Both the position numbers and the translations under genes were made by a program. Positions 48,284 to 62,285 of a stretch of 64,000 nt of DNA are shown piece after piece. Within the stretch, counting starts at the first letter, position 1. Every line of letters begins with the position of its first letter. The stretch is from Desulfatiglandales bacterium (GTDB lineage: Bacteria; Desulfobacterota; DSM-4660; Desulfatiglandales; Desulfatiglandaceae): contig OY762721.1 in assembly GCA_963666345.1 (NCBI GenBank), positions 1,984,001-2,048,000 on the forward strand, read 5' to 3'. The notes beneath the pieces are model-generated. The model was not told where the DNA came from. It saw nothing but the letters and a program-made list of their open reading frames with translations, and searched no databases.

Positions 48284-49174
48284 ATGCGGGAATCAGCCTT
48301 TAAGAACAGATTAATGCTTCTCATCAAGGTAAGCAGGCCTATGTGGTGGGTCGTGCTTCCCGTCTCATACACGGTCGGCCTGGCCTTCGGCAGGCACGGC
48401 CTTAAAAGCGCCGATTTTCATTTCTCTTTTTTCATGGCGCTTCAACTCTTTTTTCTCTCCTTTCCTTTGTGCCTTTTTACATTCGGCCTTAACGACATCT
48501 ACGACTATCGCGCGGACATGAAGAACCCGAGGAAAATGGGAAAATCGCTTAAAAGCGCGCTCAATTTCGACGGCACGGTCTCGGATGAAAAGGATCAGGA
48601 TTTTCTAAAAAAAGCCGCCTGGTTTTGCGGAACCCTCTTCTTCCTGATCTCGCTCTCAGGCATGAACATCTTCAATATCTTTTACGCGTTTTCACTTCTG
48701 CTGTTGAGTTTTACCTATTCGATGCCCCCCTGGCGCCTTAAGACAAGACCCCCGCTTGATTCCATCCTAGGCGGCATTATAACTGTTATTGCGCCTTTCG
48801 GCATGGCCTTCAGCCTTGTTGACGACCCCTTCAGGATACCCCTTCAGATATATCTTTTTTCCATATGCGGCATGGGGGTCCACGCCTTTTCCACCACCAT
48901 GGATCATGAAGCGGATAAAAAGCTGGGGGAAAGGACCTTTGCCGTGGTATTCGGAATGAGATGGGCGGCATTTTTCCCTGCCGCGGCTTTTCTGATGACC
49001 TTTTTTTCCTTACACGGACTCCGCTACAAGATATATTTTGCACTCTGCATCTGTATCTTTACCTGGTTTATCTTCCGCCCTTCGGAAAAACAGGCAAGAA
49101 ATGCCCTCTTGATGATGCTGGCGGGAGCCGTTGTTGTCTCCATATACGGAGTTTATGAAATGTTCGCGATGTAG
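48284..49174 (+). CDS. UbiA-family prenyltransferase (resembles the lycopene-elongase-like subgroup)
   Basis: SRP, NDIYDYRAD.KNPRK, YSMPPWRLK.RP.LDS, D.EADKKLG.RTFAVVFG. Confidence 0.85.
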   Translation: MRESAFKNRLMLLIKVSRPMWWVVLPVSYTVGLAFGRHGLKSADFHFSFFMALQLFFLSFPLCLFTFGLNDIYDYRADMKNPRKMGKSLKSALNFDGTVSDEKDQDFLKKAAWFCGTLFFLISLSGMNIFNIFYAFSLLLLSFTYSMPPWRLKTRPPLDSILGGIITVIAPFGMAFSLVDDPFRIPLQIYLFSICGMGVHAFSTTMDHEADKKLGERTFAVVFGMRWAAFFPAAAFLMTFFSLHGLRYKIYFALCICIFTWFIFRPSEKQARNALLMMLAGAVVVSIYGVYEMFAM

Positions 49175-49422
49175 GGGGGTAAAAGGACAGGGTCCGGGAA
49201 GCCCAGGGGTCAAGGGTTCCAGGATGGCGATAGGACAAAGGTTCCTATCTCGCCTTTCCCGCTTTTCCCGCCTCGGCGTAAGGCCTTTAAAAGAGGTTGT
49301 CAACAGCCTTGAAATGCCTGATAATGCCGGAATCGCAGGAAAAAAATCGCCCTGGAGCTGATCATGGAGCATCTATGTAAGATTTTCAATGCAAGATTTT
49401 TCTCTTTAAAGGACGGTGTTCT

Positions 49423-49452
49423 AAAAAAGCATAAAATCATGGTCGTCCCCCT
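49423..49452 (+). repeat. Solo copy of the RAYT terminal repeat (28/30)
   Basis: AAAAAAGCATAAAATCATGGTCGTCCCCCT. Confidence 0.88.
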
Positions 49453-49482
49453 CGGGTGGGCATGGAGGTTTCTTAAAGGGAT

Positions 49483-50343
49483 ATGCTGCCAAGGATTAAT
49501 ATCGGAGTAATGAGCACGTACAACCTATGTTACCTGCTCGGGATTCTCATCGGCTGGGTGATGTTCGTTGCCGCCGAAGAGGATATATATAATTGTGAGA
49601 GCCGACATATTAATATGAAAACCGTTTTTCTCGCCTCAATCGCCTATCTTGTGGTGGTGATCGTATGCATTCAGGGGGCAAACTACTTTCATTTTATTTT
49701 TGATCATATCCCGGCCGCCGCAAGAAAAAAACTCACATGGAAGGATATCATCTTCCCCGATCTTATGAGGACGGTTAAGGTGCTTTACGGAGCGATTTTT
49801 TTCTACCCGGTCGCGATCTTCATCGTCTCAAAGGTGCTCAAAAAGAAAGACTTTCTCGACTACCTGAGCAGAAAGGGGTTTATCCTCTTTTTCATACTGG
49901 GATTTGCCAGGCTTGGATGCTTCGCAAACGGATGCTGCTACGGGATCCGCTCCGACCTGTTCGGGATAAGATTTCCAATGGGCTCGGCCGTCTCTGGCGA
50001 GCATATGAGAAGAGGGCTTACCTACGGGTTCGTGCCGCCCCCTTCCCTTCCGGTAATACCCACCCAGATCATTTCGGCGGCCGTTATTTTCGCGCTCTCT
50101 TTTTTCTGCTGGAGATCCTACAGAAAAGAAAAAAACAGAACGCTTTTTTTCAATTATGTTCTCTATTACGCGATATTCAGGTTTCTCATAGAGTTCATAA
50201 GGGATGACATAGACAGGGCCTACTGGTTAGGGATATCGGCTTCACAGTGGATATCCATACTCATTATGATATGCTTTCTGGTATATTATGGGGTTAAAAA
50301 GAGAGGGTCCGAGGGGTCGAGGGGCCAAGTGAAAACACCTTGA
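49483..50343 (+). CDS. Divergent prolipoprotein diacylglyceryl transferase (Lgt)-family protein
   Basis: ARLGCFANGCCYG, PTQ, YAIFRFLIEFIRDD, SASQWIS. Confidence 0.8.
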   Translation: MLPRINIGVMSTYNLCYLLGILIGWVMFVAAEEDIYNCESRHINMKTVFLASIAYLVVVIVCIQGANYFHFIFDHIPAAARKKLTWKDIIFPDLMRTVKVLYGAIFFYPVAIFIVSKVLKKKDFLDYLSRKGFILFFILGFARLGCFANGCCYGIRSDLFGIRFPMGSAVSGEHMRRGLTYGFVPPPSLPVIPTQIISAAVIFALSFFCWRSYRKEKNRTLFFNYVLYYAIFRFLIEFIRDDIDRAYWLGISASQWISILIMICFLVYYGVKKRGSEGSRGQVKTP

Positions 50344-50465
50344 AATAAACTCCGGAGTTTATCATTCAACTTTTTGTGTGGCATGCAGAATAAGAGGATC
50401 CGGGGTTTTAAAGGTCAGGTGTTGAAAAAGGACCAAACCTTAACCTTTGCGAAGCAAAAGGTTAA
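50338..50465 (+). repeat. Module B (inverted copy of 34598-34692) plus truncated family A hairpin
   Basis: About 95 bp near-identical, including the TAAACTCCGGAGTTT palindrome. Confidence 0.85.
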
Positions 50466-50483
50466 ACGTCATTATAAAACAAG

Positions 50484-51134
50484 ATGATTCCTGACTTTCT
50501 CAAGATAAAAAAACACAGATGCATCCTGAATTACTATCTCATATGGCTTCCGTTTATCATGGTCTACCAGGTGACCAACCGGTTTCACTTCATTGAACCG
50601 AGGCTGCTTCCCATGTCACGGCTGGATGAGGCCATACCCTTTCTGCCATGGACCATTCCGGTCTATGTCAGCTATCTTGTCTATACATTTGTGGTGATTA
50701 CGAGAAGCAGGGATGATAATGAGGTAAGGGAGATCTTCGTTTTCACCCATATCCAGCTTGTGATAGCGGCCCTGTTTTTCATCTTTTTCCCGGTGACCTA
50801 TCCAAGGGAAGGGTTTTACTACCCGGGAAGCATGACATCCATGTTCAACGGTTTCTGGGTGATGTTCGACGAACCCAACAACTGTTTCCCGAGCCTGCAC
50901 ACCATGCTCTGCCTGACCGCCATAAGATACAGCATGGACAAGCCCGGCAAATGGTTATTCTGCGCGTGGGGGGCTCTCATTATCGCAACCACCCTGACAT
51001 GCAAACAACATTACGTAATTGATATCGCCGGGGCGTTCGCGGCCTACTGGCTGTCTTTAAAGATATTTTCTCTCTACTGCTCCCGGACCCCCGGGAAAAG
51101 CCCTGACTGTCCTCCTTCCCAGAGCAGCCAGTAA
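50484..51134 (+). CDS. PAP2 superfamily (AUR1/IPC-synthase-like) membrane protein
   Basis: NCFPSLH and KQHYVID motifs; multiple TM helices. Confidence 0.85.
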   Translation: MIPDFLKIKKHRCILNYYLIWLPFIMVYQVTNRFHFIEPRLLPMSRLDEAIPFLPWTIPVYVSYLVYTFVVITRSRDDNEVREIFVFTHIQLVIAALFFIFFPVTYPREGFYYPGSMTSMFNGFWVMFDEPNNCFPSLHTMLCLTAIRYSMDKPGKWLFCAWGALIIATTLTCKQHYVIDIAGAFAAYWLSLKIFSLYCSRTPGKSPDCPPSQSSQ

Positions 51135-54100
51135 AAATCGTCGAAATATGCCACCTCCTGGTTGTCGGGATCAGTGCTCTCCCCGTTTATTCCAAGCGTG
51201 TGAAGACCGAATTCCGACACGTCATAAGTGTTTGCCAGCTGAAAATAGTCTGCTGTTGTATAGGTCCCGGTATAGACAATCACATTGTCCCCTTCGTTGT
51301 CCTTTCCCTTTTCAACCAATTTGATATCGGCAGAGGCACTTCCACAGCCGCTGGCCTCCGGGTTTTGAACCGTATGGCTTGTATAGCCGGTTTCTCCGTC
51401 AAACACGGGGCCGCCCGAATTCCTCAGTCCTCTCCAGACTATCTGGGAAAAATAGTCGCCTTCATAAGTCCACCTTATTGTGTCCCTTGGGACCGCCTCC
51501 CTTACATCGTCTTTCGGATACCCTAGGGTTCCGGCCTTTCCGTCCGGGTCCGTTATGAAAGCCGTTATCGCGTTCACCCTCTCGTTACCCTCGGCATCCC
51601 CTGTGCCGGTATCGCAGTCCAGGTTGCCTTCCATCTCATAGACCCTGACCAGTATGGTGGCCCAAGGCTTTATGTAGATCTTGTAATTATAGTCTGACTT
51701 TCTCTCCTCATTGCTGATAGTAGGCACTCGAATAAACCCCACCGGGCACGTGGTTGTACCGTCAAAGGTGTTAACAGGGTCCCCGGGGTCAGTAGGGTTT
51801 GCAGGGTCGACGGCATTATGCACATAATTGGCCGGGTCCCTGATTATAACATTGCTCGGGCCCGGAGAACCCAGGATTTCAACACCTTCCAGTGTGGTCG
51901 TACTCAATATGTTATACCTGTCCTTGAGCTTCCAGGACCAGTATTCGTTTTGATAATAAGGGGTTATGCCCGGATCAGGATTTGCACCTTCATAAAAAAG
52001 ATTAGTACTGCCTATCTTGTAGTGGTAGATACGTACCCTCACGGCATCTACAAGGGGGGAGTAGGCAAGCCACTCCCACGGTGAGTAGTCCGCCCCTCCA
52101 CCGCATCCGCCCGTGTTTACAGGATCTCCATCCGCGTTCGTGCTTACATCCTTCTGCCACAGAACTATGTAAGGAATACCGTCGAGCGGAGGGTCGTCAT
52201 TCCAGTTGGTCGGCGTAAAGGCCGAATCAGGGCAGGCCTGTATCTCCGACGCGTTTGTTGTGTCGCTGTGGTCGTTGAAAAAATTATCCGTTATATCATC
52301 GTTTTCCGTGAAACTATAGGTTGAACCGCCGCAACTTCCTGAGGATTCTTCATGTTCCTCGAGGCCCTGAAGACCGCGCAGAAAAGAAAGCCCGTAGTAT
52401 GTTGCCTGGCCGAAATTGCCTGCCTTGGGAGACCGTATCCGGAATGAAAGTCCGGGCATATAGCAGCCCGGGTGGTTTATGGGTGCGCTGTCCGTATCGT
52501 CTTCGGTCTCAGTGAATTTGACCTTTGCCTGTAAATCATAGGTAAGCTTGTTGCCCGATTTTTCCCATAGCTGTTTGAGAAAATTGGTTTCGAATGAGTG
52601 GTGGTCCCAGTTTACAACGGCAAGGCTTTCGCTGTGAAGAACCGGCCCGGTATGTCCATCCTGGGTGTAATTGGTGTATGAATATGTCTGCTCCGTGCTT
52701 GTTACCTTTAGGGCGCCGCCTTCAATGGCGTGGGTCCCGAGCTTTGATGAGATCTTTCCGGCATCCCCTGCGTCATTAAAATCGATGCCTCCCTCCACCT
52801 TCTTGTACAGTTCCACAGTCGACAGGGGCTGGTGCATCTTTACCGTCTGGGTGCTCTGTAAAGAGCCTGTCCCGGCGATCCCGGTGCTTGATATTACCGC
52901 ATGTTTTCCAAGAACCACCGGGGTGTTGCTGTTTACCGACACACCTGAAAATGAAAAAGAGACCCCTTTGGGATACTGGAGTCCTCTCAATTTCCCGTCT
53001 TTCTTTAACCTGTAGACCAGGAGCTGGTCATTGCCGGCAGCGTCCGTGAAGTTGATTATCCCGTTTACTTCGGGAAATATGGCAAGGTGCGCGATATCTG
53101 TTGGAGTCAACACATCATTTGCAAGGTCGGGATCCTCTCCGATCACACTTGCCGTCACGGTCTGGGCACTTGCCAGAAACGCGGGAAACACGTCTCCGGC
53201 CGTATATGAGACAGATCCGTTCAGGGCGAACCTCAGATTTCCTCCCGACCAGATGGTATTTGTGAATCTTTCGACAGATGTTCCGCCTGACACAGGGATC
53301 TGGATATACCCTGAAAGCCCGGCGGTTACATTATCAGGAAAAGATCCGAATGGAGACACCGTGATAGTGCCGGATGACCCGGATGAATTGTTGTCAAACC
53401 AGTAGCCGTCAAGGTCAAGGGCGAAGCTGTCGTTTCCAAGCGGGATCGAGCCGCCCAGGTTGAGGTCGTTTACAAACGCGGTATCGTTTCCGTCATGTTT
53501 GTGATATCGCTGGGCCGCGTAGGCAAGCCCTGATTCGGCAAGGTAGTAGGCCTGCTGTGAAATCTGGGGAGACACGGTGCCCACGGTGGAACTGCTGAAC
53601 ATGCCGACCATGGCGGCGGAAAGGACGGCCATGATAACGATCGTTATTATGATGCCTATCAGAATGGCTCCCGTTGTGTTTCTGATAAATCTTAAGGCTT
53701 TCACTTTTTTCTCCTTTTTGGCAACCAGCCTGAAAATCAGCCATGCAACGACTGCGAAGGCCATAAAGGCCCATGGAAAATGAAAGGTCAAAAAGAGCAG
53801 CCCTGTCACCGGCAGAAACATGACCTTCAAAAAGGGAAGAAGCCCGGGGATCTTGTCCGCGAGCAGGCACAGCCTGGGGCTGATGAGGTTATAGAGGGAA
53901 ACCATTTTTCCGCCGATTGTTCCCGCCTCAAGCATCTTCCGCCTGGCCTCCCTGTAAAGGTCAATAATTGCCGGGCCGCCGTCTTTGTAGATTCGTGACT
54001 TGATAAAGCAACTGAACTCACTGCTTGTAGTACCCGCGGATGCTCCGGGAGCGCCGGTCGAGGGAATAAATGTGTTTCTCGGAACCACACGATCTGAAAA

Positions 54101-54613
54101 CTGCATGGTCTGGCTGCCGTCACCCCCTGCAAGGGTCAGGTTTACCGTCACATAGGAAAGCTCCGAAATCAGGTCCCCCAAGGACCATGATCCTGCTCCC
54201 CCTGACTGGGTCTGAAAGTCGAGGGTAAAGGACTGGACCACGTCCACAAGATCATGAGGGCCGCTGCTGCCGCTGCTGTCGGTTACGGTCAGGGTCAGTG
54301 GAGTGTCCACAGTCCCGGACCAGGCATAGGTCTCAGTTATATTTTCCCCGTTGCTGAGCCTGTCCAGGGTTATGGAGTTGGCACCGGCCGCTGTTATGAG
54401 AGTAAGATTTGCGATCGATCTCCTGAGCCTTGTCAACGGCAGCACGTTTTTCTGGCCCATCTCCGTCGTGTTTTTTGTAAAGATAAACGCCTTTGACGCC
54501 TGCACAATGCCAAGACCCGCCACAGAGGCAAGCACACCCACCAGCAGAAGTACCGCGATCAATTCTATAAGGGAAAATCCTTTGTTTCTGCCGCCCTTTT
54601 TATTAAAAGTCAT
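51074..54613 (-). CDS. 1179-aa prepilin-type fusion: PilW/GspJ-like + CFI-box-CTERM-like + PilX/GspK-like + large beta-rich domain
   Basis: N-terminal KG|FSLIEL; CFIKSR...LYNLISP at residue 202; internal RNTTG|AILIGIII...QAYYLAESGL at residue 315. Confidence 0.8.
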   Translation of the reverse strand: MTFNKKGGRNKGFSLIELIAVLLLVGVLASVAGLGIVQASKAFIFTKNTTEMGQKNVLPLTRLRRSIANLTLITAAGANSITLDRLSNGENITETYAWSGTVDTPLTLTVTDSSGSSGPHDLVDVVQSFTLDFQTQSGGAGSWSLGDLISELSYVTVNLTLAGGDGSQTMQFSDRVVPRNTFIPSTGAPGASAGTTSSEFSCFIKSRIYKDGGPAIIDLYREARRKMLEAGTIGGKMVSLYNLISPRLCLLADKIPGLLPFLKVMFLPVTGLLFLTFHFPWAFMAFAVVAWLIFRLVAKKEKKVKALRFIRNTTGAILIGIIITIVIMAVLSAAMVGMFSSSTVGTVSPQISQQAYYLAESGLAYAAQRYHKHDGNDTAFVNDLNLGGSIPLGNDSFALDLDGYWFDNNSSGSSGTITVSPFGSFPDNVTAGLSGYIQIPVSGGTSVERFTNTIWSGGNLRFALNGSVSYTAGDVFPAFLASAQTVTASVIGEDPDLANDVLTPTDIAHLAIFPEVNGIINFTDAAGNDQLLVYRLKKDGKLRGLQYPKGVSFSFSGVSVNSNTPVVLGKHAVISSTGIAGTGSLQSTQTVKMHQPLSTVELYKKVEGGIDFNDAGDAGKISSKLGTHAIEGGALKVTSTEQTYSYTNYTQDGHTGPVLHSESLAVVNWDHHSFETNFLKQLWEKSGNKLTYDLQAKVKFTETEDDTDSAPINHPGCYMPGLSFRIRSPKAGNFGQATYYGLSFLRGLQGLEEHEESSGSCGGSTYSFTENDDITDNFFNDHSDTTNASEIQACPDSAFTPTNWNDDPPLDGIPYIVLWQKDVSTNADGDPVNTGGCGGGADYSPWEWLAYSPLVDAVRVRIYHYKIGSTNLFYEGANPDPGITPYYQNEYWSWKLKDRYNILSTTTLEGVEILGSPGPSNVIIRDPANYVHNAVDPANPTDPGDPVNTFDGTTTCPVGFIRVPTISNEERKSDYNYKIYIKPWATILVRVYEMEGNLDCDTGTGDAEGNERVNAITAFITDPDGKAGTLGYPKDDVREAVPRDTIRWTYEGDYFSQIVWRGLRNSGGPVFDGETGYTSHTVQNPEASGCGSASADIKLVEKGKDNEGDNVIVYTGTYTTADYFQLANTYDVSEFGLHTLGINGESTDPDNQEVAYFDDFYWLLWEGGQSGLFPGVREQ

Positions 54614-54791: not shown

Positions 54792-55214
54792 TTACTCTAT
54801 CAAAAGAAAAGATGTTGTCAGGCCATCCTCCCCGGAGGTCGGAGTCACCGTCACTTTTAGTATGCCTTCAGAGCCGCCGTCTGCTATCTCGTTGAAGCCG
54901 GAGTCATACGCGATATACTGTGTTGAAACAGTGGCTCTCGAGTTGTCATACTTATTGCCGTCTATATCAGCTTTCATGCCTGAAAGGGCACCGGAAGACA
55001 TGTGCATGTAATCGGCCATATAGTCTGCTATTATGTTGTCCGCCACCTGGTTCCTCTCATAGAACCTGGCCATTGTTATGGCAGGAAAGGCGCTTTTCTG
55101 AAGGGCGGTCCCTGTGAAGGAGATGAGCATGGACCCCATTATTGCCGCGATTATGATAGCAATTATCACTTCAATAAGGGTAAAGCCGCTATTGTCTTTT
55201 CTCTTTTTTATCAT
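54792..55214 (-). CDS. Prepilin-type protein (PilV/GspI-like minor pilin)
   Basis: SG|FTLIEVIIAI class III signal. Confidence 0.85.
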   Translation of the reverse strand: MIKKRKDNSGFTLIEVIIAIIIAAIMGSMLISFTGTALQKSAFPAITMARFYERNQVADNIIADYMADYMHMSSGALSGMKADIDGNKYDNSRATVSTQYIAYDSGFNEIADGGSEGILKVTVTPTSGEDGLTTSFLLIE

Positions 55215-55696
55215 GGTATAAATCCTGTTACGGGAGTAACTGTAATTGATTCACTTATAAAGGATAAAGACCCGGACATCGGAGTTCCGCAGTTGGGATC
55301 CGTGTAAGGCGCCCCCCACCAGTCAAACGCGATTGTGTCATTGCATGAAAGATTTGACTGCAGGGTTACGACATCTGAATCAGCACCGGGAAGAGCAACC
55401 TTTTCATTCGCTGAAAAAGTGTTGTCATCGTTGTCATTTCTGTAAAGGGAATAGGTTGACCCGACAAACTTGATTCCCCACCGCTTGGCGCTGTCGGCCA
55501 TGGCCCTGCTCTGGGCATACCTGAGATGGCTTTTTACCAGTTCAATGTCCGCGATCTTATCCGCGTTTATTGTATTGGCCCTGCTTATTACAATTGCTGA
55601 AACGATTCCTATAACAATCAGGGTCACAACCACCTCAATTATAGTAAATCCTGAGCAATTCATGCTTCCGCCGGAACCTGATCTTTTTACAACCAT
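55211..55696 (-). CDS. Prepilin-type protein (FimT/GspH-like minor pilin)
   Basis: SG|FTIIEVVVTL; LRYAQSRAM; IAFDWWGAP. Confidence 0.85.
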   Translation of the reverse strand: MVVKRSGSGGSMNCSGFTIIEVVVTLIVIGIVSAIVISRANTINADKIADIELVKSHLRYAQSRAMADSAKRWGIKFVGSTYSLYRNDNDDNTFSANEKVALPGADSDVVTLQSNLSCNDTIAFDWWGAPYTDPNCGTPMSGSLSFISESITVTPVTGFIP

Positions 55697-55745: not shown

Positions 55746-56345
55746 TTAACTCTGGAAGCTGATGTTGGAGGAGTACCTGTCCATCACATAAGTGAGCAGG
55801 CCTCCTATTATTATGCTTCCGATCGTAAGAGGCAGCAGGGCAAGGGCCACAATCGGAATTTTCAGATCCATCTGAAGAAATATGTTATTCATGATGATTG
55901 CACCCACATATATAAGAATGCCGAGCCTGGCAGATCTTACCGACACGGGCCGGCCCGATATAAACGATATGCCGAGAAGAGCAAAGCCTACGGCAACGCC
56001 AAAAGCGACCTCCGGCTGATAGAGCAGCCAGACTGCGTTATAACCGGCGCTGGTGATCGTTTCCATGCTCAATAAAAACATGAGTCCCACCACAAGATAA
56101 AAAAGGCTTACAAGCATAAAGAAGAAACCGCACTGCCTGCCGGTGATGCCTTCAGGAAATAGACTCAGCCCCTTTATTGCACGAGGCTGTATAAGAAAGT
56201 CCCGGAGCCTTTTAAGCGCCCCGTACCGGGACGGACAAGTTCCCATCCGGGCCATGACCAGATCGGTAAAATCATCAGGTGCGGCAACCCGGGGAGTCTT
56301 TTCAAGGATATTTATGATGTGCTGAAATTTTTCTTGTTTTTTCAA
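55746..56345 (-). CDS. Putative anti-sigma membrane protein
   Basis: TTG start; APDDFTDLVMARM motif followed by about 4 TM helices; downstream of an ECF sigma. Confidence 0.65.
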   Translation of the reverse strand: MKKQEKFQHIINILEKTPRVAAPDDFTDLVMARMGTCPSRYGALKRLRDFLIQPRAIKGLSLFPEGITGRQCGFFFMLVSLFYLVVGLMFLLSMETITSAGYNAVWLLYQPEVAFGVAVGFALLGISFISGRPVSVRSARLGILIYVGAIIMNNIFLQMDLKIPIVALALLPLTIGSIIIGGLLTYVMDRYSSNISFQS

Positions 56346-56396
56346 GTCGTTCTCGCCTTCTAATAACGAATAACAAATAACCGTGTCCTCATTTTC

Positions 56397-56500
56397 TTTG
56401 CCGCCCGCTTCGCTTGACAAAACAGGATCAAAACAAATGTAAAGATTTTTTACTCTGCCGACATTGGCAGAGCAAAAGCTTCGTTTGCTTCGCAAAAGGG
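56397..56500 (-). repeat. Family A element
   Basis: Reverse-complement of the consensus; flanked by AATAAC(A/G) heptamers. Confidence 0.85.
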
Positions 56501-56652: not shown

Positions 56653-57195
56653 TTACTTTTCGTTCATCATCCTGTTGAGCCCTTCAAGCCCCCTGTAGAC
56701 CCGCATTTTGGCCGAGCTTACAGAGCAGGCCGTGATTTCGGCAATCTCATCAAATGAGAGATCCTGGTAGAACCTCAGGACAACCGCCTCTTTGAGCTTG
56801 ACAGGCAGTCTGTCAAGACAACTGGATATCCGAAGCACCTCCTCCTGTTGGATCATGTCCTGTTCCGGATCAGGGGGGCTGTTTTGCGAATGATAATCGG
56901 CCCCCCGCATCCGGTTATTCACATAATTCTTCTTTTTCTTCAGATGATTGCGGATGAGATTAAGCCCTATGGTGTAAAGCCAGGTGAAAAACCTCCTTTT
57001 CCGGTCAAAACGCCCCAGATTTTCAAATGCCTTTACAAAGGTCTCCTGCGCCAGATCGCCTGCCTCCTCGTACGACCCGGTCATGCGAAAGGCAAGGTTG
57101 AAAACAGGGGCATTGTATTTGTGGACAAGTGCGGCATAGGAGTCCCTGTCTCCCGCCATAATCCTTTCAATTATGGAATGATCTTCTTCTGACAT
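56653..57195 (-). CDS. ECF RNA polymerase sigma factor
   Basis: AGDLAQETFVKAF, FFTWLYTI, LSFDEIAEI...SAKMRVYRG. Confidence 0.95.
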   Translation of the reverse strand: MSEEDHSIIERIMAGDRDSYAALVHKYNAPVFNLAFRMTGSYEEAGDLAQETFVKAFENLGRFDRKRRFFTWLYTIGLNLIRNHLKKKKNYVNNRMRGADYHSQNSPPDPEQDMIQQEEVLRISSCLDRLPVKLKEAVVLRFYQDLSFDEIAEITACSVSSAKMRVYRGLEGLNRMMNEK

Positions 57196-57801: not shown

Positions 57802-59049
57802 CTAAAAACCACCAAAAATAGGATCAATTAGACACAAGTAATAGTTGAACGAGGCAACTATACCAGTGAGTATTTCCGCAAAAAAAGATAACCCGGAAAA
57901 TAGCAATATAACTGCAGTAAAAGACTTTTTAAAAGTAGATTTAATACCAAGCTCGATTCTTCGAATAGTTTCGGTAGTTAGAATCGAAAACAGCAATATT
58001 GAAGGTGGCGTAATTAGGATTATATAGCGAACAACTTTGGAATAGCCTAAGTAGGCTAATATGACATGAAAAATTATAACCACAAATATCCACATGAAAA
58101 GACACGCACCTTGGCGTCTTAAGCTTTTATTTTTCCATAAAAATATATAAAGAAAAATTGAGGGGATAAAAGTACACATAATTCTTGGCAACAACGATAA
58201 ATATATCCAATGAGATCGAATTACAGTCAGATATTTAACATAATTATTGCTTTCAATAAGGCTATCGCATGGCTTGCCCGCCCAGCCGGGAAAAGGTGTG
58301 CCTACTTTAATCCACTGATAAACCTCCCAGGGGGTTTGCACTAGAATTGCTGGTACAATTAAATATGGAACAAATCGCAGGAATTTCTTCTTATCTGTAC
58401 AAAGAAGCCAGGCCAGAGCGGTAATGCCTGGAAAAATCAGGAACGCTGTTAATTTTATTAGGCTGGCATATCCCAAAAGCAGGCCGGAAATAATAGCCAG
58501 CAAAGCACTTTCACGCTTTACAGCCCAGATAAAAACAGCAGAGGCAAGAGTGGAAAAACCCAATAACGGGCCATCCAACCAGTAATATATTGTGACGTGA
58601 GCCATGATTGGACTAAAGGCAGAGAGCCCGGCAACCAGAAGTAATCCGATGCTTGATGACGCCAAGCCGAACAGACGCGCCAGAAGAATCATACTACAAA
58701 AGAAAAGGACATAGCTAAAGAGTTGTGCAAGAGGAAAACCCCAAATTCCAATAACATTATAAAATAACCAAAATAATGCTATGCCTCCTGGTGGATGAAA
58801 AAAAAGCGGTTTGTCATATCCATTTCTATCGATTATGTCTAGTTCCAGCAGAGGCGTCCCCTGGAGGGTATAACCATTTCCGCTATCCAACTGTTTAACC
58901 AATTCAATATAAATGATTTCATCGATCTCATTGTGTGCCACTACAAAAACTACTAGACGTAAACAAAAGCCCAGAAAAAACAAGACCATCACAATTTTCC
59001 ATCGTGAAATAAATGATCTAAGGCTAGAAAGAAAATTGATTTCAGTCAT
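57802..59049 (-). CDS. GT-C (ArnT/PMT, family 39-like) glycosyltransferase
   Basis: IDE..Y, FHPPG, WLD, ASLIK motifs; many TM helices; visibly AT-richer than neighbours. Confidence 0.8.
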   Translation of the reverse strand: MTEINFLSSLRSFISRWKIVMVLFFLGFCLRLVVFVVAHNEIDEIIYIELVKQLDSGNGYTLQGTPLLELDIIDRNGYDKPLFFHPPGGIALFWLFYNVIGIWGFPLAQLFSYVLFFCSMILLARLFGLASSSIGLLLVAGLSAFSPIMAHVTIYYWLDGPLLGFSTLASAVFIWAVKRESALLAIISGLLLGYASLIKLTAFLIFPGITALAWLLCTDKKKFLRFVPYLIVPAILVQTPWEVYQWIKVGTPFPGWAGKPCDSLIESNNYVKYLTVIRSHWIYLSLLPRIMCTFIPSIFLYIFLWKNKSLRRQGACLFMWIFVVIIFHVILAYLGYSKVVRYIILITPPSILLFSILTTETIRRIELGIKSTFKKSFTAVILLFSGLSFFAEILTGIVASFNYYLCLIDPIFGGF

Positions 59050-59644
59050 CTGTGTGCATTATCCCAATCATTATGTTGACATCATCATGATCCTGGAAGT
59101 GAATCCCATTTATTTTACAGCCTGATGGACACAAGCTATAATCCCCAAAAATGTATAAACAAGAAAAAGCATCAGACAGCTTCGGCAAATGGGCGAGGTA
59201 AATCGCAGTAAACCTCACCTGATGTTTTACCGTCAAGAGAAGAATGGCATCTGATGACAATATTGTTCTTAATCCACTTGCTAAACCCCAAGCAAACACA
59301 GAGACTTTCCCGTATCAAATGAATGCAGCAGATGTAATGATATTTTAATATCCGCCGTATATTGGTTTATAAATATAAGAAAAAGATCCATTTACAACAA
59401 TTTGGAGTTCTATTAATATAATATTGTTAATAAATTAGTATCAATCCAGGAATGGACTATTTCCGGATGTTGCTTTCAGCCCCGCCACATTCACGGCGGG
59501 CAAGCATCAGCCATCGGCAAGTAACCAATAACCTCTCGCCCCGCTATGTCTGTTTTGTCAAACGAAGCGGGAGGTAAAAGAAAGGGGTCAAGGAGCCGAG
59601 GGGCCTAGGGTTCAAGTGATCCGCCACAGAACAGGCGGATAAAA

Positions 59645-59890
59645 ATACTTAAAAATTATAGGAGGTTAAACATCCGGCAGAAATCTCATGCACCTTGGTT
59701 GCATATCTATAAAGAAACGAAACGTTTTTTATGCATGAGCGATACGAGTTTATCTTCAAGATCATAAGATCCGAGGTATCCGTACCATGGAATACCGCAT
59801 GAGCATATGTGGGATTCCTCTATATTGCATATGGTTCAGTCACTGAACTGGAAACCGTGAGCCATGATATTGGGTCAGTCGGGTTATCCT
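59645..59890 (+). pseudogene. Decayed four-helix-bundle (23S rRNA IVP/S23-like) gene between inverted octamer arrays
   Basis: LKNYRRLNIRQKSH...IYKETKRF / HERYE...IIRSEVSVPWNTA* / FLYIAYGSVTELET. Confidence 0.72.
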
Positions 59891-59976
59891 CGAACCCTTG
59901 AATCCTGGAACCCTTGGACCCTCTTCGACAACTAAGTTGGAGAAAAAGCATAATATTAAAATTCGGAGAAGCGATA

Positions 59977-60741
59977 GTGTTTAAAGACAAAAAGGTCATC
60001 GTGGTCATGCCGGCCTACAATGCTGAAAAGACCCTGCGGAAAACGCACAAAGAGGTCCTGGATCAGCAGATAGTGGATCTGATCATACTGGTGGATGACG
60101 GAAGCTCCGACAGGACGGTAAAGGTTGCTGAAACCCTGCCTGATACGATGGTGTTCGTTCATGAAAAAAACAGGGGGTACGGGGCAAACCAGAAGAGCTG
60201 CTACCGTCTTGCGCTTGAGCAGGGTGCGGATATAGTAGTAATGGTGCATCCCGACTACCAGTACACCCCTAAGCTGATCCCGGCAATGGCCTCTTTAATC
60301 GGAAACGGGCTTTACCATTGCGTGCTCGGCTCAAGGGTCCTTGGCGGTCAGGCCCTGAAAGGAGGCATGCCCTGGTGGAAATACCTTTCAAACAGGGTCC
60401 TTACCATGGCTGAAAACCTCCTGACCGGGGCAAAGCTGTCCGAATATCACACAGGCTACAGGGCCTTTTCAAGAAAGCTCCTCGAGCAGTTGCCGCTTGA
60501 GCAGAATTCAGATGATTTTGTGTTTGACAACCAGATGCTTGCCCAGATCATCCGGCTCGGTCACACCATAGGAGAGATAAGCTGCCCCGCCAAATACTTT
60601 GAAGACGCCTCTTCCATAAACCTTTCACGCAGCATCAGGTACGGCATGGGCTGCCTGGGGGTGGCCTTGAGCTTTTTTGCGGCCCGGGTGGGACTCACAA
60701 AAGAGAGAAGGTTAAAAAAAAGGGTCCCAGGAGCCAAGTGA
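59977..60741 (+). CDS. GT2 glycosyltransferase (polyprenyl-phosphate sugar synthase-like)
   Basis: VMPAYN, VDDGSSD, NRGYG, HPDYQY, EYHTGYRAF; GTG start. Confidence 0.9.
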   Translation: MFKDKKVIVVMPAYNAEKTLRKTHKEVLDQQIVDLIILVDDGSSDRTVKVAETLPDTMVFVHEKNRGYGANQKSCYRLALEQGADIVVMVHPDYQYTPKLIPAMASLIGNGLYHCVLGSRVLGGQALKGGMPWWKYLSNRVLTMAENLLTGAKLSEYHTGYRAFSRKLLEQLPLEQNSDDFVFDNQMLAQIIRLGHTIGEISCPAKYFEDASSINLSRSIRYGMGCLGVALSFFAARVGLTKERRLKKRVPGAK

Positions 60742-60938
60742 ACCACGAAGAAACAGCATGTTTTTTCTCCGTGTTCTCTGTGGTTTCTGTGAGAAATAAA
60801 AGGCATTTGAACTTCAGGCCCCAACTGGTGAAACTGAAACCGCTGTTCAACTTTTGGGAAGCAAACGAAGCTTTTGATTTGCCAATGTCGGGAGAGTAAA
60901 AATATTTTTGACAACAGGTTTTAAGGGTACGTTACAGG

Positions 60939-60968
60939 AGAAACGCATAAAATCATGGGCGTCCCCCT
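60939..60968 (+). repeat. Solo copy of the RAYT terminal repeat (29/30)
   Basis: AGAAACGCATAAAATCATGGGCGTCCCCCT. Confidence 0.9.
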
Positions 60969-60991
60969 TTTTTGACTGGCAACGCAGTCGG

Positions 60992-62113
60992 CTATTTTTC
61001 CCACGGGCCGCTGGATGGTTCGGGAAAAACCGCGAATCTCCGGCCTATGAAATTACCGACAAGACCTGCCGTGCTTGCAGAAAGCTTTGCGATAAAAGGC
61101 CAAAAGCCAATCGACATTAAAGAGCTTGTGATGACAAGGTCCAATAAAACCATAAAACAGACAACCAGAAAATATATGAACACTTCCATAGCTGAATTCC
61201 ATTTTGCCCGGTGCCTGAACAAAAGCTTAATACATAAAATATAGTTTACAGCCGCAGCAAAAATAAACGCAACCGGGGCAGCCACAAACACCTCAAGATC
61301 AAACCGTAACAACAGAAGGAATACCGCAAGGTTTACAAGCGCCGCAGTACCGCCGATAAAGAGGTAAAAGAGGAATTGAACCGGAACAGGCGCCCTGTAT
61401 GCATTGTACCTGAAGATGCAGTACAACGCCCTGAAACCGTCTTTTACCCCTATTTTTTTACCTTCCCCGTAGGTCCTGCCATAATAGGATATCCCCATTT
61501 CAAAAATTCTTACCCTCATGTGAGCGACTTTTGCCACTATCTCCGGCTCAAAGCCGAAGCGGTTTTCCCTGATATCGATCTGTTCAATTATCTCTCTTTT
61601 AAAGACCTTGTAGCAGGTCTCCATATCGGTCAGGTTCAGGTCGGTAAACATATTGGAAATAAATGTAAGAAACCTGTTTCCCATGTAGTGCCAGAAGTGG
61701 AACACCCTGTGCGCACCCCTGGAAAGGAATCTTGAACCGAAAACTACATCGGCCCTGTCTTCAATTATTGGAATTATCAGTCTCTTAAGGTCTTGCGGAT
61801 CGTATTCCAGATCCGCATCCTGAACAGCCACAAGGTCCCCGGTTGCATGCCGGAATCCGGTACGCAGTGCCGCACCCTTACCGGCATTTTCTTTGTGGGA
61901 TACCACCCTTATGTTCTGAAATACCTTATGAAGTTCCTGCGCTATGGCAGGGCTTTTATCGGATGATCCATCATTTACGATTATTACTTCCAGGATTAAA
62001 GAATCATCTTCAATTTCGAGTAGTTTTCGAATGCATTTCTCAAGAGTCGCTTCTTCATTATAGCAGGGGACCACTACACTCAGCTTCATAGCTTTTTCAG
62101 GTGTTTTCTTCAT
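60992..62113 (-). CDS. GT2 (DPM1-like) glycosyltransferase fused to a GtrA flippase domain
   Basis: PCYNE, NDGSSD, QDADLEYDP, TDMETCYK; C-terminal 4-TM GtrA-like domain. Confidence 0.9.
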   Translation of the reverse strand: MKKTPEKAMKLSVVVPCYNEEATLEKCIRKLLEIEDDSLILEVIIVNDGSSDKSPAIAQELHKVFQNIRVVSHKENAGKGAALRTGFRHATGDLVAVQDADLEYDPQDLKRLIIPIIEDRADVVFGSRFLSRGAHRVFHFWHYMGNRFLTFISNMFTDLNLTDMETCYKVFKREIIEQIDIRENRFGFEPEIVAKVAHMRVRIFEMGISYYGRTYGEGKKIGVKDGFRALYCIFRYNAYRAPVPVQFLFYLFIGGTAALVNLAVFLLLLRFDLEVFVAAPVAFIFAAAVNYILCIKLLFRHRAKWNSAMEVFIYFLVVCFMVLLDLVITSSLMSIGFWPFIAKLSASTAGLVGNFIGRRFAVFPEPSSGPWEK

Positions 62114-62133
62114 TAGATAACACAACCCATATC

Positions 62134-62285
62134 GATGGACTCGTAACAAGTCATAATTGAGACGGCAAAGTAAAAAGTCCCAAATGCAAGGCCTGCGAAT
62201 CTTGAGGAATGAGGCGTACGTACAGTACGTCGCAATGACGAAAGATGAAGCATAACGCAGCAGTTGGACTTTTTACGAAGCCGTC
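62134..62285 (+). mobile_element. 152-bp MITE (family C), copy 2
   Basis: Same length and highly similar to 54636-54787; flanks CATATC/CATATT. Confidence 0.88.

Follow-up and report, generated by a model that had tools for sequence, protein, structure and literature searches.

A fused pair of minor pilins with a predicted internal prepilin peptidase site in a Desulfatiglandales bacterium

Here, we describe a gene in a 64,000-nucleotide stretch of DNA from a Desulfatiglandales bacterium (contig OY762721.1, positions 1,984,001 to 2,048,000; below, the window) whose product joins a GspJ/PilW-like and a GspK/PilX-like pilin into one polypeptide through a hydrophobic linker. Given that the two fused pilins come with an invariant internal cleavage site, the product probably serves as a precursor from which two pilins are cut. 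We propose that prepilin peptidase cuts it after Gly315 and that this cut, predicted from the sequence and its conservation, yields J-like and K-like tip pilins in a 1:1 ratio. The fused architecture itself is beyond chance, as it recurs in more than 100 diverged proteins.

Architecture of the fused protein and its family

The gene lies in a minus-strand frame that runs uninterrupted from 54691 to 51074 (stop codon 51074-51076) and, from its likely start at an ATG at 54613, encodes 1,179 residues (P0001; coding positions 51077-54613). A first-pass annotation, made from the letters of the window, had claimed one continuous frame for this gene, and no stop or change of frame was found in it. The parts follow one another in the order leader, GspJ-like pilin, CFI-box module, basic tail, Gly315 site, K-like pilin and ConA-like lectin fold (Table 1). 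An AlphaFold2 (AF2) model built from a 45-row alignment, with a predicted local distance difference test score (pLDDT) of 81.5 and a predicted template modelling score (pTM) of 0.66, contains two long alpha1 helices (residues 15-68 and 314-372) and disordered segments that flank the linker module. Low confidence is confined to residues 1-13, 187-206, 211-213, 301-313 and 833-836, mainly the leader and the stretches that connect the linker to either side, and pLDDT falls below 50 over 187-206 and over the basic tail at 301-313. A Foldseek search with an earlier low-confidence model (pLDDT 58) gave no useful match, and a profile search of PDB sequences matched the N-terminal pilin motif only.

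Table 1. Parts of the fused gene, a possible internal start and the genes upstream, in window coordinates
Feature	Position	Strand	Description
Leader of prepilin 1	54578..54613	-	Residues 1-12, MTFNKKGGRNKG; Gly12 at the -1 position
Pilin 1	54056..54577	-	Residues 13-186; alpha1 helix 15-68 and beta domain; GspJ/PilW-like
Flexible spacer	54011..54055	-	Residues 187-201; Gly/Ser/Pro-rich
CFI-box module	53720..54010	-	Residues 202-298; Cys202-Phe203-Ile204, three soluble helices, then hydrophobic helices 257-279 and 281-298
Basic tail, leader-like	53669..53719	-	Residues 299-315, KKEKKVKALRFIRNTTG; ends in Gly315 (codon 53669-53671)
Possible internal start	53702..53716	-	AAGGAG 53711-53716, six A, GTG 53702-53704 (Val304); out-of-frame TGA 53701-53703
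Alpha1 helix of pilin 2	53498..53668	-	Residues 316-372, AILIGIIITIV..., with QAYYLAESGL; AF2 helix 314-372
Beta-rich domain of pilin 2	52814..53497	-	Residues 373-600; assigned to the body of the K-like pilin; pLDDT mostly 84-94
Lectin-fold module	51077..52813	-	Residues 601-1179; ConA-like lectin/CBM jelly roll with large insertions
PilV/GspI-like minor pilin	54792..55214	-	140 aa; N_methyl 32.8 bits; 4-base overlap with adjoining gene
GspH/FimU-like minor pilin	55211..55696	-	161 aa; N_methyl 26.3 bits
Membrane protein of no family	55746-56495	-	Possible anti-sigma; head of gene row
ECF (extracytoplasmic function) sigma factor	56653-57195	-	Sigma70_r2, r4_2 and ECF matches; heads gene row

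The first-pass annotation had read the N-terminal part as a class III signal with a PilW/GspJ-like domain, and both halves of that reading held. The first site reads MTFNKKGGRNKG followed by FSLIE, with Gly at -1 and Glu at +5, and was recognized above cut-off by both TIGR02532 (24.8 bits; cut-off 16.3) and PF07963 (22.1 bits; cut-off 21.2), as expected of a type IV pilin with a class III signal; G12, F13, L15 and E17 are invariant in alignments A1 and A2. Residues 47-184 have the GspJ/XcpW fold, matching XcpW (3nje_A; Z 11.3, root-mean-square deviation (rmsd) 2.6, 120 aligned), GspJ (3ci0_J; Z 10.7) and EpsJ (2ret_B; Z 10.6), and Foldseek placed pilin 1 with the XcpW/EpsJ chains at a probability of 1.00. 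The GspJ sequence model TIGR01711 found no match to P0001 at E ≤ 1.

The C-terminal approximately 800 residues had been described as an Asp/Gly-rich beta domain with GxCG motifs; the region is indeed beta-rich, and the GxCG motifs are restricted to the closer relatives. On the AF2 model, its distal part is better described as a lectin-fold adhesin module, for which sugar binding is a prediction: residues 603-1167 matched the carbohydrate-binding module CBM66 (4b1m_A; Z 13.0, rmsd 2.4, 157 aligned), peanut lectin (1ciw_A; Z 12.5) and ERGIC-53 (1r1z_A; Z 12.4). The extreme C-terminus (...YFDDFYW...GxLPGIQEQ) is conserved in alignments A1-A3. Between the second alpha1 helix and this module, residues 373-600, searched as part of the full-length model, matched no solved fold.

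A profile of ten fused members (A2) was searched against 1.84 billion cluster representatives and returned 501 proteins at E ≤ 1e-30, from which we sorted 157, namely the best 150 together with earlier hits and the window protein (near-copy P0002 omitted), aligned to the first 420 columns. Proteins were called fused where the internal site lay more than 150 residues from the start and unfused where it lay within 80 residues, which gave 119 fused, 30 unfused and eight unplaced members in a first pass. Inspection changed this to 122 fused and 28 split: P0104 and P0138 begin inside the hydrophobic part of the linker and are fused forms truncated at the N-terminus, and the unplaced members comprise one fused protein lacking the CF motif (P0155), one with the J-like pilin and CFI-box only (P0147), one C-terminal fragment (P0153) and five that start at or after the site. 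Homologues are thus mostly fused, a point on which the first-pass annotation had made its reading depend. Among 209 genomes of the order of the window's genome, 11 matched the J part at E ≤ 1e-20, of which eight are fused (two cut by contig ends) and three (G024, G050, G077) matched the J-like part alone, a separate K-like gene having been examined in G024 only. By their record titles, relatives fall in the Syntrophales, Smithella, Desulfatibacillaceae and others, and among 41 related genomes, three carry uninterrupted frames with the same parts (1171, 1027 and 1026 codons in G015, G025 and G030) and G024 has two separate genes.

Where the pair is split, the two pilins stand side by side. In seven of the eight split K-like genes examined (seven loci and G024), the adjacent upstream frame encodes a J-like pilin; for the eighth, the second K-like gene of L023, no upstream frame is listed. 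The split J-like pilin ends at the spacer, a few residues past a conserved PRN motif and without the linker, and the K-like gene begins beside it with a short basic leader of its own. An unrooted FastTree phylogeny was built on 450 residues that follow the site in 108 fused and 28 split members (136 rows in all), leaving out rows with under 400 residues in this part. Fused and split forms interleave on it, with at least 15 changes between them, of which well-supported branches (95 or more) force at least eight; this count is rough, as the labels rest on metagenome gene calls and the tree is unrooted. Judged from this tree, a single origin of the fusion without reversal is unlikely.

One member departs from both forms. 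P0147 lies on a 1.05-Mb contig and has near-identical members of 297 and 303 residues from other assemblies (three assemblies), which indicates that a J-like pilin with a true C-terminal CFI-box exists. Its genome is not among the 209 genomes of the order, where the best match has 44% identity. It is unusual for a pilin to combine a class III helix at its N-terminus with a membrane anchor at its C-terminus.

The internal glycine and the topology of the linker

The second site, which the first-pass annotation had likened to a prepilin site without Glu at +5, reads G315 followed by AILIG, with QAYYLAESGL at residues 353-362. The residue aligned to Gly315 is Gly in all 119 fused and all 30 other relatives, and its register is fixed, as AYYLAESG starts 40 residues past the Gly in 101 of the 101 sequences in which the pattern was found; the other 18 of the 119 are spelling variants of AYYLAESG, judging from the eight that were printed. 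A355, A359, E360, S361 and G362 are invariant or nearly so. Around the Gly, the sequence varies: the +1 position among fused members is Ser in 72, Ala in 19 and Asn in 13, with others besides, and the +5 position is Gly in 70, Ala in 19 and Ser in 12, and never Glu. The residue just before the Gly (-2) is Lys or Arg in 75 of 119, and an uncharged run of 21-44 residues follows, above the minimum of 20 for a class III signal, so that the site presents a basic leader with Gly at -1; Glu at +5 and an N_methyl match are absent, and no second N_methyl stretch was reported. Absence of Glu at +5 is expected for GspK/PilX. That the Gly is retained so strictly, exactly at the peptidase site of the unfused relatives, is our chief reason to regard the internal site as still in use.

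The lack of Glu at +5 and the QAYYLAESGL motif agree with assignment of this second unit to PilX/GspK; the GspK model NF037980 matched far below cut-off (E 0.017; 14.6 bits against a cut-off of 130) over the N-terminal 58 residues and reached E ≤ 0.01 in two of nine homologues.

The linker had been called a CFI-box-like segment from Cys202. NF041770 aligns at residues 202-269 over nearly its full length (profile positions 1-68 of 69) and matched nine of nine aligned homologues (best E 1.1e-22), and hydrophobic residues 257-298 followed by the basic stretch KKEKKVKALRFIR complete the module, but the score in P0001 (22 bits for the protein, 27.7 bits in a six-frame search) missed the cut-off of 40. 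The module is also not C-terminal here, as 880 residues come after it. C202 is kept in 117 and F203 in 114 of the 119 fused relatives, and C202, E17 and G315 are among the 15 invariant columns of the 45-sequence alignment A3.

From Cys to Gly, the linker comes in two sizes, of 44-86 residues in 45 members and of 100-140 residues, with a full CFI-box, in 72. Each short linker contains exactly one hydrophobic block (mean 21 aa), and the tail from there to the Gly (mean 20.6 residues) carries 5.5 Lys/Arg, against 1.4 in the 15 residues preceding the block, with more Lys/Arg after than before in 44 of 45. Long linkers show the same bias (5.4 after, 2.5 before; after exceeding before in 68 of 72), and their hydrophobic part averages 35 residues, compared with about 44 in the window protein. 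Helix, basic cluster and Gly are retained even in variants without the first hydrophobic stretch (P0021; L043 and L044) or without the CF motif (P0155).

These patterns bear on topology. A K-like domain placed outside the cell, as for any pilin, requires an odd number of membrane crossings by the linker, and since one-helix variants keep the basic cluster and the Gly, we read the second hydrophobic stretch as the probable crossing helix. The basic cluster after this helix obeys the positive-inside rule and would fit a return of the chain to the cytoplasm, where the first-pass annotation had placed Gly315; the charge bias and the single membrane helix of short-linker relatives both point the same way.

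Processing of the chain and alternative readings

In the mechanism that we propose, the gene would encode the precursor of two minor pilins that belong to the tip, or initiation complex, of a type IV filament. Insertion of the chain at the first class III signal would leave its N-terminus inside and the GspJ/PilW-like domain in the periplasm; the CFI-box segment would cross the membrane once and return the chain to the cytoplasm, where the basic tail KKEKKVKALRFIRNTTG would double as the leader of a second prepilin; and the AILIG... helix would cross outward, bearing the large GspK/PilX-like pilin and its lectin-fold adhesin module. The single prepilin peptidase of the genome would then cut after Gly12 and Gly315, a further step near Cys202 (a cut or a modification) would detach the first pilin from the helix that anchors it, and the J-like and K-like pilins, together with H-like and I-like pilins encoded upstream, would prime and cap the filament. 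This reading, already outlined in the first-pass annotation, is the most probable of those considered, and each of its refuting conditions that sequence data could address turned out in its favour.

Several points weigh against this proposal. Cleavage at Gly315 is a prediction, and the single crossing is deduced from short-linker relatives and charge bias rather than measured; the AF2 model draws the hydrophobic part of the window protein as two helices (258-278 and 281-301, 21 residues each), and if both spanned the membrane, Gly315 would lie on the wrong side. A cut at Gly315 alone would leave pilin 1 on the linker helix, so that release of two pilins needs a second step, and we know of no enzyme for the CFI-box motif. 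Prepilin peptidases remove short N-terminal leaders, and a cut that follows approximately 300 residues and two helices has no precedent in the literature searched (subscription journals and supplements lie outside its coverage here and below). The stand-alone P0147 implies that the CFI-box module has a role of its own beyond joining J to K, and no further CFI-box match occurs in the window's genome. Finally, a strong Shine-Dalgarno (SD) sequence and a GTG stand 11 codons before Gly315, and pilin 2 could therefore also be made alone in this genome.

A more elaborate version of the proposal, which we put forward tentatively, is a membrane polyprotein that is processed twice, with prepilin peptidase acting as an endoprotease at Gly315 and the CF motif with its invariant Cys serving as a sorting signal that is cut, and perhaps lipid-modified, by another enzyme to free the J-like pilin. 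One gene would then give a stoichiometric, pre-paired J:K core for filament initiation, and what elsewhere is a C-terminal sorting signal would here act as a topology adaptor linking two class III signals.

The most serious alternative to cleavage is that the protein stays in one piece, as an uncut tandem pilin with three or more membrane helices. Such a covalently tethered J-K module could serve as a membrane-held priming platform or as a short pseudopilus tip that stays in the inner membrane, the Gly being kept for helix packing or flexibility. The stability and wide spread of the fusion would agree with this, as would the folded helical module in the long linkers, the stand-alone protein in which a J-like pilin carries a C-terminal anchor without K, and the predicted status of the cut. 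We consider it rather unlikely. At the junction, only the Gly is invariant and its flanks drift, and the same Gly is the peptidase site in unfused relatives; the repeated replacement of fused by split forms, and the reverse, on the tree is easiest if both give the same end products. In addition, in the solved GspI-J-K complexes (3CI0), the N-terminus of K sits within the helix bundle, and a 300-residue extension would not fit there.

The internal start codon raises a second alternative, in which the K-like pilin is a nested gene made mainly from GTG 53702-53704 as an ordinary prepilin with a 12-residue leader, and loss of a stop codon has left the read-through fusion as a minor or tolerated side product. 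At the junction, AAGGAG is followed by six A and GTG, which puts the SD-like hexamer six bases ahead of the in-frame GTG, and a TGA in another frame overlaps the GTG. With one A less in the A6 run, gene 1 would end in KKEKK and a stop overlapping the GTG; the overlapping TGA and this run suggest that the two genes once overlapped at GTGA. We also note, as an observation in its own right, that a one-base change in the A6 run (53705-53710) of AAGGAG-A6-GTG (53701-53716, minus strand) would toggle between one fused gene and two overlapping genes.

Ten independent fused loci with DNA (the window, L002, L003 with its near-copy L004, L013, L014, L016, L039, L040, L043 and L044) speak to how general such a start could be. 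A start codon with an SD-like string within the basic tail occurs in three of them (strong in the window; AGGAGG-N12-ATG, with its 12-base spacer, in L003; and a weak GGAG-N8-ATG in L039), five have start codons only inside the membrane helix or without an SD sequence, and two have no ATG, GTG or TTG in the tail at all. SD-like strings arise by composition from the Lys, Arg and Glu codons of a basic tail, seven of the ten loci lack an SD-bearing start there, the frame stays open in relatives down to approximately 25% identity, and the A6 run is free of indels in junction-spanning contigs of three runs. On this evidence, internal initiation cannot supply pilin 2 across the family, although it may add to pilin 2 in the window's genome, and a nested gene as the main source seems clearly improbable.

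As one A fewer in the A6 run would make two overlapping genes, assembly error had to be ruled out, and the first-pass annotation had itself named a stop or frameshift near the junction as decisive. Contigs of three runs, two of them possible sources of the window DNA (X1, X2) and one from an independent study (X4), cross the junction with zero gaps, and the X4 contig differs from the window by seven substitutions in 764 bases and no indels; in a further run (X6), 13 of 30 bins were covered and the junction fell outside coverage, which makes that run uninformative. The same frame is kept in P0002 (99% identical, 1179 aa) and in P0003 (66%, 1172 aa) from another complete genome. The notion of a pseudogene or of two genes joined by a one-base error, which a homopolymer run and a TGA one frame off at the junction might have invited, is refuted as far as contigs can show, given these agreeing contigs, the two proteins that keep the frame and the 119 fused relatives.

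Gene neighbourhood and known systems

Upstream, the fused gene is preceded by genes for two further minor pilins, which completes the H-I-J-K set claimed in the first-pass annotation; the corresponding gene order is present in the window and in relatives, with the H and I models below cut-off. The PilV/GspI-like product matched TIGR02523 (E 2.1e-4) and TIGR01707 (E 1.6e-3), both below cut-off, and a gene of this kind stands at the same position in G015, G025, G030 and L016; the GspH/FimU-like product matched TIGR01708 (gspH) at E 1.3e-7 and 31.8 bits, missing the cut-off of 80. The order of sigma factor, unassigned membrane protein, H, I and fused gene is repeated in a Smithella locus (L016:2034-3356), and the tip-pilin set may be under envelope-signal control. 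The complete 4.16-Mb genome encodes one A24 prepilin peptidase (G000 C1:917619-917948 region), along with 13 prepilin motifs and ten T2SSE-family ATPases. Outside the operon, the closest cluster, with two pilin genes and a T2SSE-family ATPase, lies approximately 21 kb away (past the operon, at G000 C1:2060942-2066021), nearer than any other candidate machine for these minor pilins.

Genes for a UbiA prenyltransferase, an Lgt-family protein (prolipoprotein diacylglyceryl transferase) and a PAP2_3 phosphatase run convergently towards the fused gene (48284-51134, plus strand), and a PAP2_3 gene is likewise convergent downstream of the fused gene in L013 (L013:3269-3967). Modification of Cys202 by the Lgt-family product (49483-50343) was considered and dropped, as the gene is on the opposite strand and no Lgt gene stands beside the fused genes in L013, L014 and L016. 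Upstream of the operon (57802-62149) lie a PMT_2 (ArnT-like) membrane glycosyltransferase gene and two GT2 genes, and GT2 genes also occur beside fused genes in L014 (3805-4812) and L016 (837-1718); these may reflect pilin glycosylation or mere neighbourhood.

I-J-K minor pilins start every type IV filament, and how their right ratio is met is an open point. If the proposed cut takes place, a natural single-chain precursor of J and K would be one solution to this problem, and prepilin peptidase, besides removing leaders, would act by cutting within a polytopic protein. The uncharacterised CFI-box module gains a first testable role, and one gene, one peptidase and one Gly offer a compact system for the topology rules of class III signals. 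The lectin-fold tip module would suggest glycan-directed adhesion in sediment and sludge bacteria related to syntrophs. The first-pass annotation knew of no description of this architecture, and none was found: a natural J-K fusion finds no mention in the literature searched, including the available parts of PMC13759059 and PMC13533445. No paper on the CFI-box-CTERM domain or the CFIATAAYG motif was found there either, and searches on prepilin peptidase together with polyproteins returned unrelated work only.

The closest known relatives of the set are GspJ-GspK of type II secretion and PilW-PilX of the type IVa pilus. As in these, the gene order is H, I, J, K, with GspH/FimU and GspI/PilV first; residues 47-184 have the J-like fold; the K-like member is large, lacks Glu at +5 and comes last; and the split relatives are exactly two adjacent genes. 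In contrast to both, J and K are here one polypeptide with what appears to be a membrane-crossing linker, the protein falls short of the GspJ and GspK sequence models, and K carries a lectin-fold module of approximately 580 residues.

The linker resembles CFI-box-CTERM (NF041770) in the alignment from Cys202 described above, and canonical examples in G011 and G026 likewise start with CF(I/V)ATAAYG and go on to two stretches of hydrophobic residues and a basic end. Unlike the canonical domain, which ends a protein, it is internal here, is followed by a second pilin and scores below cut-off, and 45 relatives keep just CF, one helix and the basic cluster. The canonical copies end large, secreted-looking proteins (L006 in G011 and L009 in G026), of which one begins like a signal peptide and contains many Asp-rich repeats and the other, a subtilisin-like protease, contains FN3-like repeats. 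PEP-CTERM, MYXO-CTERM and LPXTG are tripartite C-terminal sorting signals, and the short linkers share their plan, in which a motif with an invariant Cys is followed by a spacer, a single membrane helix and a cluster of basic residues; they differ in that more protein follows the signal and in that no cognate sorting enzyme was identified here.

Lastly, K-family minor pilins such as CpaL and GspK are described, in the part of PMC13533445 available, as carrying an adhesin module and an extreme C-terminal strand that locks the tip complex. In the K-like half of the window protein, as in these, a pilin-like domain at the N-terminus and a large module in the middle are followed by a conserved extreme C-terminus. 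CpaL and GspK, as presented in that part of the source, differ in not being fused to J, and beta-strand addition by the C-terminus is suggested for our protein by analogy; its conservation nonetheless fits the strand-locking picture drawn there.

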